Shown piece by piece: positions 27,457 to 29,304 of a DNA stretch of 32,004 nt. The number at the start of each line of letters is the position of its first letter. Position 1 is the first letter of the stretch. A program made the position numbers and the translations under genes. Source of the DNA: Escherichia coli (GTDB lineage: Bacteria; Pseudomonadota; Gammaproteobacteria; Enterobacterales; Enterobacteriaceae); the NCBI RefSeq assembly GCF_003334815.1, contig NZ_QOWO01000042.1; one strand, given 5' to 3'. The notes beneath the pieces were generated by a model that did not search any database, was not told the origin of the DNA, and saw nothing but the letters and a program-made list of their open reading frames with translations.

Positions 27457-29286
27457 CTACTCTTCGTCATCGCCATCAACATGCGCACGAATCAGCGCCA
27501 TAAACGGTTTGCCAAAGCGTTCCAGCTTGCGCATCCCAACGCCGTTAACGCTGAGCATTTCGCTGGCGGTGATCGGCATCTGTTCAGCCATCTCAATCAA
27601 GGTTGCGTCGTTAAACACCACGTACGGCGGGACATTACTTTCATCGGCTATCGATTTACGCAGTTTGCGTAATTTGGCGAACAGTTTGCGATCATAGTTG
27701 CCGCCGAACGATTTCTGCATCGCTTTCGGTTTGAGCGCCACGATACGCGGCACGGCAAGTTGCAAAGAGGATTCGCCGCGCAGCACCGGGCGCGCGGCCT
27801 CTGTCAGTTGTAGGGCAGAATGCTGGGCAATATTTTGCGTCACCAGGCCGAGGTGAATCAGCTGGCGGATCACGCTCACCCAATGTTCATGGCTTTTATC
27901 ACGGCCCATGCCATAGACTTTCAGTTTGTCATGACCATAGTCGCGGATACGCTGGTTATTAGCACCACGAATCACTTCCACCACATAACCCATCCCAAAC
28001 CGCTGATTCACACGACCAATGGTGGAAAGGGCAATCTGAGCATCGGTTGAACCGTCGTACTGTTTCGGCGGATCGAGGCAGATATCGCAGTTCCCGCACG
28101 GCTCCTGACGCCCTTCGCCAAAATAGTTCAGCAATACCAGACGACGGCAAGTTTGCGCTTCGGCAAACGCGCCCATCGCATTGAGTTTGTGGCGCTCGAT
28201 ATCCTGCAACTGCCCCTGCGGCTTCTCTTCCAGACAACGGCGCAGCCACGCCATATCAGCCGGATCGTAAAACAGCATCGCTTCCGCGGGCAGGCCATCA
28301 CGCCCGGCGCGTCCGGTTTCCTGATAATAGGATTCGATATTGCGCGGAATATCAAAGTGGACCACGAAGCGAACGTTTGGTTTATTGATGCCCATGCCGA
28401 ACGCCACCGTCGCCACCACAATTTGCAGGTCATCGCGCTGGAATTTTTCCTGCACATCGGCGCGAACATTATTTTCCAGCCCGGCATGATAGGCCGCCGC
28501 GCTAATTCCCTTGCTTTGCAGGCGCGCAGCGGTGTCTTCTACTTTCGCGCGGCTGTTGCAGTAGATAATGCCTGACTTACCGCGCTGTTCCTGCACGTAG
28601 CGCATCAACTGATCGAGCGGTTTGAACTTCTCCATCAGCATGTAGCGAATATTCGGACGGTCAAAACTGCTGATTTGAATCAGCGGATCGTTCAGCCCCA
28701 GCAGGCGCACGATATCCTGGCGCGTGGTGTCGTCGGCTGTGGCGGTCAGCGCCATAAACGGCAGCGTCGGGAACCGCTGGCGCAACTGACCGAGCGCGGC
28801 ATATTCCGGGCGGAAATCGTGGCCCCATTGGGAGATACAGTGCGCTTCATCAACGGCTAATAACACCGGATTCCAGTGCGCCAGATGCTCAAGAAAGTTA
28901 TCCAGCATCAGGCGTTCCGGGGCGATATAAAGCAGACGAATTTGCCCGGTGCGGCAGCCTGTCATCACTTCAAGTTGCTGTTCGCGGGTTTGCGTCGAGT
29001 TAAGGCACGCCGCCGCCACGCCGTTGGCTTGCAGTTGATCCACCTGATCTTTCATCAACGAAATCAGCGGTGAAACAACCACGGTAAGGCCGTTTAGCAA
29101 TAAGGCAGGGATTTGATAGCAAAGGGATTTTCCGCCACCAGTGGGCATGACGACGAGGCAATCGCGGCCGGAAAGCACAGTGTCGATAATTTCTTCCTGG
29201 CCGGGGCGAAACTGTTGGTAGCCAAAGGTTTCTTGTAAAACCTGTTTAGCTCCGGACTCCAGATTCAACACTTCCGCCTGCGCCAC
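27457..29286 (-). CDS. recQ: ATP-dependent DNA helicase RecQ, 609 aa from GTG at 29286 (611 aa if the GTG at 29292 is used)
   Basis: ORF track protein [36 protein letters not shown]...; the accepted N-terminus MAQAEV corresponds to the second GTG; DEAH box and C-terminal HRDC present. Confidence 0.92.
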
Positions 29287-29304
29287 ATTCACCCCGATTG
29301 CCTG

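Follow-up and report, generated by a model that had tools for sequence, protein, structure and literature searches.

GUG initiation codons of recQ and hemG in Escherichia coli: start assignment and conservation of codon identity

The closest described counterparts of the recQ start region are the overlapping start codons catalogued by Kohl et al. 2022 (NAR 51:271, PMC9841429), whose Table 2 lists recQ among 18 genes with an annotated GUG inside AUGUG. In that study, native start codons were found most often at an aligned spacing of ~13-14 from the Shine-Dalgarno (SD) sequence. At the native AUGUG sites of hdhA and secF, where the two codons stand at spacings of 11 and 13, initiation was efficient at GUG only, with almost none at AUG, while dual initiation was seen at some other native AUGUG sites, those of pqiA and tamA. 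recQ itself was scored there as having no SD, the definition of which called for Watson-Crick pairing of four or more nucleotides with the final 9 nt of 16S rRNA, and the abundance of RecQ was given as 0.594 ppm. A second group of relevant precedents comprises the GUG of lacI (PMC11445065, on non-canonical start codons of the lac operon) and the AUU codons of infC and pcnB (cited in bioRxiv 10.1101/063800), which recQ resembles as a low-abundance protein that has retained a sub-optimal start. Unlike these genes, neither recQ nor hemG has any known autoregulation or start-codon-dependent control, and the hemG codon is not even conserved. More generally, GTG accounts for ~14% of start codons in the E. 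coli genome, GUG is a less efficient start than AUG in reporters, the canonical group of AUG, GUG, and UUG spanning 10-100% of the AUG level (both from bioRxiv 10.1101/063800), and selection on start codons normally favors AUG (PMC5622118).

The window analyzed here, a 32,004-nt stretch of DNA, comes from the core chromosome of E. coli; every one of the 5,426 complete E. coli genomes in RefSeq has a match to the recQ 5' region and to that of hemG. In a collinear RefSeq record, which lies in the reverse orientation relative to the window, the gene order is rarD-yigI-pldA-recQ-rhtC-rhtB-pldB-yigL-bioP-metR-metE-ysgA-udp-rmuC-ubiEJB-tatABCD-rfaH-ubiD-fre-fadAB-pepQ-yigZ-trkH-hemG. Among the 30 complete coding sequences of that record, 25 start with ATG and five (17%) with GTG, namely recQ, bioP, rmuC, tatB, and hemG. 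This share is close to the genome-wide rate (probability of at least five in 30, 0.41) and a GTG start is therefore not unusual in this region. The best overall explanation, which we consider likely to be correct, is that neither recQ nor hemG is out of the ordinary for E. coli and that their GUG starts are correctly annotated. Both starts are already part of the standard RefSeq annotation, just as the recQ AUGUG is already in the catalog of PMC9841429, and the boundaries obtained here for recQ (609 aa) and hemG (181 aa) are identical to those of RefSeq; the sequence-only reading of this DNA from which our analysis departed had simply left the choice between two recQ GTG codons open. What is added here is a decision between these codons, an overlapping ATG that had been overlooked, and the distinction between a fixed start codon in recQ and a labile one in hemG.

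Choice of the recQ start codon

The recQ coding sequence occupies positions 27457-29286 of the minus strand (609 aa plus stop), and the RefSeq coding sequence (WP_000035581.1) starts at window position 29286. Read 5' to 3' on the minus strand, the beginning of the gene is ...CAATCGGG GTG (29292-29290) AAT GTG (29286-29284) GCG CAG GCG GAA.... The two GTG codons reported by the sequence-only reading are thus where it placed them, in frame and 6 nt apart, on a strand that it did not specify; recQ and hemG are both on the minus strand. Upstream, the frame is closed by a TAG (29322-29320), such that the longest form of the recQ open reading frame spans 27457-29292 and encodes 611 aa from the upstream GTG. 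The same reading had presented the two codons as equivalent candidates, a view that does not survive comparison with the annotation, the family models, the crystal constructs, or 105 orthologous loci, all of which favor 29286. RefSeq places the start at GTG-29286 in an identical strain as well as in strains with divergent pldA-recQ spacers. The 609-aa protein belongs to the NCBIfam RecQ equivalog family NF008279, scoring 1312.3 bits (cutoff 1015) with residues 1-608 aligned to model positions 1-608, and it also scores 931.5 bits against TIGR01389 (cutoff 640.2). Furthermore, M-AQAEV opens both crystallized constructs, 1OYW from E. coli and 4TMU from Cronobacter.

Since neither RefSeq, the family models, nor the constructs are independent of annotation, orthologous recQ DNA was collected. 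A degenerate DNA pattern for helicase motif 0 (residues 21-30) retrieved 120 loci from a species-level genome collection, and the usable set comprised 105 Enterobacterales loci with ~48 genus-level labels, extending from Escherichia to Proteus, Xenorhabdus, Erwinia, and Arsenophonus. The codon equivalent to 29286 is GTG in all 105 loci and ATG in none; after dereplication, the counts are 101 and 0 of 101 unique sequences. This is a divergent sample, with a mean pairwise third-position difference of 0.485 in the codons that follow and with flanking columns that vary freely. Motif 0 lies exactly 20 codons after this GTG in all loci but one; in the exception, from Dickeya, a 5-codon insertion moves the GTG to 25 codons before the motif, in a sequence context matching that of Pectobacterium. 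The codon equivalent to 29292, on the other hand, is GTG in only 11 of the 105 loci (7 genus-level labels), a TAG stop in three, and GTT, GAA, GTC, AAA, or others in the remainder. Farther afield, Aeromonas and Pseudomonas recQ have ATG starts and N termini of different lengths. Within E. coli, 5,304 of 5,426 genomes share an identical 61-nt recQ core; in the most divergent variant examined (strain S6aCHROMc) only the AGG preceding GTG-29292 is mutated, leaving the SD and the start intact. On this comparative evidence, GTG-29286 is the true recQ start and GTG-29292 is a lineage-specific codon lying inside the ribosome-binding element.

Two other assignments of the start have to be weighed against GTG-29286. 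Were recQ to start at GTG-29292, or at both GTG codons, the product would be a protein of 611 aa or two coexisting isoforms that differ by an N-terminal Met-Asn. GTG-29292 is the first ATG, GTG, or TTG past the in-frame stop, which is why a mechanical open reading frame call yields 611 aa, and all of the E. coli examined carry it, as does E. albertii. However, it is missing from most genera and is replaced by a stop codon in some loci, as described above, and the downstream codon is the one taken by RefSeq, by NCBIfam, and in the structural biology constructs. Moreover, the sole anti-SD match that precedes GTG-29292 is the 3-nt AGG (-0.8 kcal/mol), the very trinucleotide that was lost in a strain with an intact recQ, and the codon itself sits within the stronger duplex serving GTG-29286. 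We consider initiation at GTG-29292 very unlikely. The other proposal, in which the real starts would be downstream ATG codons, has nothing in its favor except the general preference for ATG. The statement of the sequence-only reading that no ATG occurs near the N terminus of recQ holds in frame, where the first ATG is codon 47 (in hemG, codon 80); it fails out of frame, where recQ has an ATG at 29288-29286. Helicase motif 0 would be lost from a RecQ protein starting at Met47, which also lies beyond residues 13-15, where the TIGR01389 and RecQ-family models begin; a start at hemG Met80 would delete half of the Flavodoxin_5 domain, and the N-terminal segments of both proteins are conserved in length as well as in sequence. 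Domain boundaries effectively refute these implausible downstream starts, to which we attach next to no probability.

Ribosome positioning and upstream context of recQ

Just upstream of the annotated start is an SD-like element, GGGGUGA (29289-29295, minus strand), able to pair with the 16S 3' tail GAUCACCUCCUUA in a 7-bp duplex that includes one G-U pair; its energy is -9.0 kcal/mol in a fixed register and -10.9 kcal/mol unconstrained. Measured from this element, the aligned spacing is 13 for GTG-29286 (29284-29286) and 11 for ATG-29288; GTG-29292 (29290-29292) has no usable spacing, being located inside the duplex. Among the orthologs, no conserved upstream block adjoins the recQ start other than the G-run at -9 to -6. 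Position -1 almost always holds a pyrimidine and position -2 a purine, and the SD register of best energy spans spacings of 10 to 13. The out-of-frame ATG (29288-29286) ends on the G with which the annotated GTG begins, creating AUGUG, and opens a 7-codon reading frame, MWRRRKC*, that ends at 29265 (29265-29288). The sequence AATGTGGCG at 29289-29281 thus holds the recQ start within ATGTG, as in the overlapping-start class of Kohl et al. 2022. This arrangement depends upon an AT dinucleotide before the GTG that is present in only 30 of the 105 loci, the others having GC, GT, AC, or other dinucleotides at this position, and the MWRRRKC peptide is therefore not conserved. As judged from the alignments, GGGGUGA is expected to set GTG-29286 at optimal spacing and to leave ATG-29288, which is not conserved, poorly spaced.

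With the extended anti-SD alignment computed here, recQ resembles the atGTG class of genes (hdhA, secF, ruvA, and nsrR) in its 11/13 spacing. It differs from the atGTG genes of PMC9841429 in that this paper assigns it no SD, and applying the spacing rule to recQ is an extrapolation because the GGGGUGA pairing uses a G-U pair as well as 16S bases outside of the 9-nt window of Kohl et al. It is conceivable that the AUGUG is ambiguous, in which case some ribosomes would start at AUG-29288, produce MWRRRKC, and compete with RecQ initiation, thereby lowering it. AUG is intrinsically a stronger start codon than GUG, the native sites of pqiA and tamA offer a precedent for dual initiation, and the ATG with its short open reading frame is found not only in the window, but also under 15 genus-level labels. 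Against this, the GGGGUGA alignment yields the same GUG-only arrangement as in hdhA and secF, and recQ falls outside of the ambiguous subclass in which both codons are permissive (for example, through spacings of 12/14 or two SDs), as its single duplex gives only 11/13. Due to this spacing and the restricted occurrence of the AT dinucleotide, dual initiation at recQ is judged distinctly unlikely. We favor a scheme in which recQ ribosomes would initiate at GUG-29286, positioned by the pairing of GGGGUGA (29295-29289) with the 16S 3' tail. GUG-29292, in frame but farther upstream, would serve as part of the SD-like element with no start function, while the out-of-frame AUG-29288 would be too near the SD to compete well.

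The region farther upstream is occupied by the intrinsic terminator of pldA, a hairpin at 29313-29336 on the minus strand with a T-tract extending to ~29303. With its 10-bp stem, 4-nt loop, and T-rich tail TTTTATTTCA, it has the features of a rho-independent terminator. The hairpin ends 26 nt before the recQ GTG, with the recQ ribosome-binding site beginning ~20 nt past the terminator. A terminator-like hairpin is similarly found no more than 90 nt upstream of the recQ GTG in 58 of the 105 orthologs, and in 51 of these it is located at 21-29 nt. A candidate weak recQ promoter overlaps this hairpin (29322-29350, minus strand) and consists of TTGCAG (29350-29345), a 17-nt spacer, and GAAAAT (29327-29322), the latter located in the hairpin loop. 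It matches the consensus at 7 of 12 positions, which is below the threshold of the promoter scan, and it was not called. The candidate derives from sequence conservation: cATTGCAGTTT...GGCGCTGAAAATAGCGCC is conserved from Escherichia to Pectobacterium, Brenneria, and Lonsdalea (two families), with the core present in 44 of the 105 loci, and the conserved block reads cATTGCAGTTT, ~10 variable nt, and GGCGCT GAAAAT AGCGCC TGTTT, loop included. From this conservation we infer that TTGCAG-17-GAAAAT may have the geometry of a weak sigma-70 promoter with its -10 element in the hairpin loop, which predicts a transcription start site near 29315 and a 5' UTR of ~29 nt. A literature search for a promoter or terminator between pldA and recQ returned nothing. 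Presumably, recQ transcripts arise from this weak promoter inside the pldA terminator and/or from read-through.

Two further candidate elements in this region were considered and rejected. A LexA (SOS) operator before recQ was suggested by CTGTTTTTATTTCAG (29316-29302), but this sequence is CTG-N9-CAG, whereas N10 is required; the LexA-like sequence, which lies in the T-tract, is also not conserved, its distal CAG being absent in Salmonella and Enterobacter. Similarly, the 9-nt repeat GCGCAGGCG, which occurs in the 5' arm of the terminator and in recQ codons 2-4, could in principle constitute an RNA switch through pairing of the 3' arm with the coding start. Folds of the recQ region with and without the terminator 5' arm are no better than those of shuffled sequences (z = -0.20 and 0.02), and in Yersinia and Pectobacterium the hairpin arm is unchanged although codons 2-4 are not, which counts against such a switch. 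The repeat appears to be incidental.

The trkH-hemG junction

The hemG coding sequence occupies positions 95-640 of the minus strand (181 aa plus stop). Its GTG at 638-640 was correctly located by the sequence-only reading and matches the RefSeq start (WP_000853959.1) at window position 640. The junction with trkH (644-654, minus strand) reads ...CGT GAA TGA T GGAG TAA TAC GTG (640-638) AAA ACA..., in which the trkH stop TGA (654-652) is followed by the SD GGAG (650-647) and an in-frame TAA (646-644), with hemG starting 11 nt past the trkH stop. The GGAG places the hemG GTG at an aligned spacing of 13 (-3.7 kcal/mol). NCBIfam model NF008316 identifies the protein as the HemG menaquinone-dependent protoporphyrinogen IX dehydrogenase (334.3 bits, cutoff 142; residues 1-176 on model positions 1-176 of 177), while the Pfam Flavodoxin_5 domain covers residues 4-152 (E = 1.2e-53). 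No start other than GTG-640 is viable for hemG, given the TAA located one codon upstream, a domain beginning at residue 4, an equivalog match beginning at residue 1, and a next ATG that does not occur until codon 80.

To compare hemG among its relatives, a metagenome scan was performed with a pattern for LILFS(S/T)RDGQT, yielding 119 loci. In all of them, the hemG start is located 3 codons before the motif and follows a conserved trkH end (...FWRE*) as well as a GGAG-type SD. Of 91 unique junctions, 71 have a gap of 10-12 nt between the trkH stop and the hemG start. The start codon, in contrast to that of recQ, is not fixed: among unique junctions, it is GTG in 61, ATG in 31, and TTG in five, and even near-identical junctions can carry different start codons (loci L130 and L140 versus L230). 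At least 11 changes of start codon are required on a neighbor-joining tree. The hemG and recQ samples are similarly divergent (0.556 for hemG).

The layout of the trkH-hemG junction is that of a coupled operon pair, with both genes on the same strand, an 11-nt gap, and a GGAG immediately after the TGA; like other such pairs, it brings the stop, the SD, and the start together within 15 nt in a conserved arrangement. A literature search on the GTG start of the hemG-trkH pair found nothing. Judging by this layout alone, the translation of hemG is probably coupled to that of trkH. hemG initiation is at GUG-640, 11 nt past the trkH stop, with the GGAG SD at optimal spacing. Under such coupling, the identity of the hemG start codon should matter less, which fits the free switching between GUG, AUG, and UUG. 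Such switching suggests that hemG codon identity is weakly constrained, as might be expected if hemG is coupled to trkH.

Start codon identity and expression

The sequence-only reading further proposed that the expression levels of both genes are probably set in part by their start codons. For recQ, such a role is plausible and is consistent with a GTG that is invariant across ~48 genus-level labels as well as with the very low abundance of RecQ reported in PMC9841429. Given the general selection for AUG, the complete lack of ATG among 101 unique recQ starts points to selection against ATG, which together with this low abundance makes a dosage-limiting role plausible. The recQ GUG may therefore be held by selection across the Enterobacterales. 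For hemG, the case for tuning is weak, since close relatives differ in whether the codon is GTG, ATG, or TTG. Neither recQ nor hemG is mentioned in the TRAINSPOTTER N-terminomics supplements (2026).

It is also possible that the recQ GTG is conserved without any dosage tuning, either due to slow start-codon change in general or because the G is constrained by the local mRNA or ribosome-binding site context. A control from the same genomes lends some weight to this explanation: the GTG of bioP is invariant (22 of 22), and in the same loci the starts of neighboring ATG genes remain ATG. An equally conserved GTG in bioP argues for a general stability of start codons in which recQ is not exceptional, and thus the invariance of the recQ GTG is not by itself proof of dosage tuning. 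Likewise, the pyrimidine at -1 and the purine at -2 of the recQ start hint at context constraints. However, the start codon of hemG has switched at least 11 times at the same evolutionary depth, which implies that G-to-A changes at start codons are mutationally accessible, and AUG is generally favored (PMC5622118), yet it never appears at the recQ start, the product of which is also very scarce. On balance, conservation without tuning is a doubtful, albeit credible, explanation, and selection on the recQ start codon continues to be the reading we prefer.

RecQ may be kept very scarce by its GUG start acting jointly with a non-canonical SD and weak transcription. A considerably more elaborate version of this idea would regard the entire recQ 5' region as a maintained low-expression module composed of a terminator-embedded promoter, an SD containing a decoy GUG, an invariant GUG start, and, in E. 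coli, an out-of-frame AUG that diverts some ribosomes into the 7-codon reading frame. We regard such a module as unlikely. If it were real, RecQ would be held at a few molecules per cell because a higher dosage is harmful.

In practical terms, the finding matters little, as it mainly restates the annotation, and one useful outcome is that the 611-aa longest-frame call for recQ should be avoided. In addition, recQ presents a reasonable test case for whether a GUG that is invariant throughout an order reflects selection for low recombination-helicase dosage, while hemG, with a start codon that drifts, provides its natural contrast.

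A terminator-embedded promoter candidate upstream of recQ

On the minus strand, the intrinsic terminator hairpin of pldA, the gene upstream of recQ, overlaps a conserved block at 29322-29353, which was compared with the regions upstream of recQ in relatives (L005-L124). Among the Enterobacteriaceae and Pectobacteriaceae, the hairpin sequence GGCGCT-GAAAAT-AGCGCC is kept, including its loop, and it is co-conserved with an upstream element, cATTGCAGTTT. In the window, TTGCAG and GAAAAT are spaced 17 nt apart, which suggests a candidate weak promoter for recQ embedded inside the pldA terminator, with its putative -10 element in the hairpin loop.

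The same terminator contributes one of the two copies of a 9-nt direct repeat, GCGCAGGCG, on the minus strand. Copy 1 (29331-29339) falls in the 5' arm of the terminator and copy 2 (29275-29283) covers recQ codons 2-4; given this repeat, pairing between the terminator 3' arm and the start of the recQ coding sequence is conceivable. Presumably, the repeat is incidental, since predicted folds of the region were not better than those of shuffled sequences and no covariation supporting it was found among the relatives.

LexA-like sequence and out-of-frame ATG near the recQ start

The T-tract of the terminator holds a LexA-box-like sequence, CTGTTTTTATTTCAG (29302-29316, minus strand). Its arrangement is CTG-N9-CAG, whereas a LexA box has an N10 spacer, and its distal CAG is not kept in Salmonella or Enterobacter. 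The recQ GTG itself is overlapped, as AUGUG, by an out-of-frame ATG that opens a 7-codon ORF, MWRRRKC* (29265-29288, minus strand). This ATG has a poor SD distance (aligned spacing of 11) and is found in only 30 of the 105 orthologous loci. The recQ AUGUG is included in the catalogue of Kohl et al. 2022 (PMC9841429), in which recQ was not assayed.

Start codons elsewhere in the window

Beyond recQ and hemG, the two genes listed in the sequence-only reading as having non-ATG starts, GTG starts are annotated on the minus strand for bioP (24074), rmuC (17817) and tatB (12932). The bioP GTG is kept in all 22 alignable orthologous loci, and bioP and recQ have the opening GTGGCG in common. At its 3' end, bioP (minus) converges with metR (plus) in a 113-nt overlap in the RefSeq annotation (23175-23287). 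yigZ is a further gene whose annotated start differs from the longest-ORF start (2754-2759, minus strand): its annotated ATG (2756), which has a 1-nt overlap with the pepQ stop (TGATG), is one codon downstream of the mechanical longest-ORF GTG (2759).

Separate searches of 5,426 E. coli genomes with the recQ and hemG regions each returned exactly one match on a plasmid-labelled record. The replicon may have been wrongly labelled or wrongly assembled, or a plasmid may have a large piece of the chromosome on it.

Among the hemG junctions of relatives (L125-L243), predicted SD pairing is somewhat stronger with GTG (median -5.3 kcal/mol, n=57) than with ATG (median -4.0 kcal/mol, n=29); compared as raw medians irrespective of phylogeny, these values differ in the direction of the compensation between start codon and SD that Belinky et al. 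2017 described.
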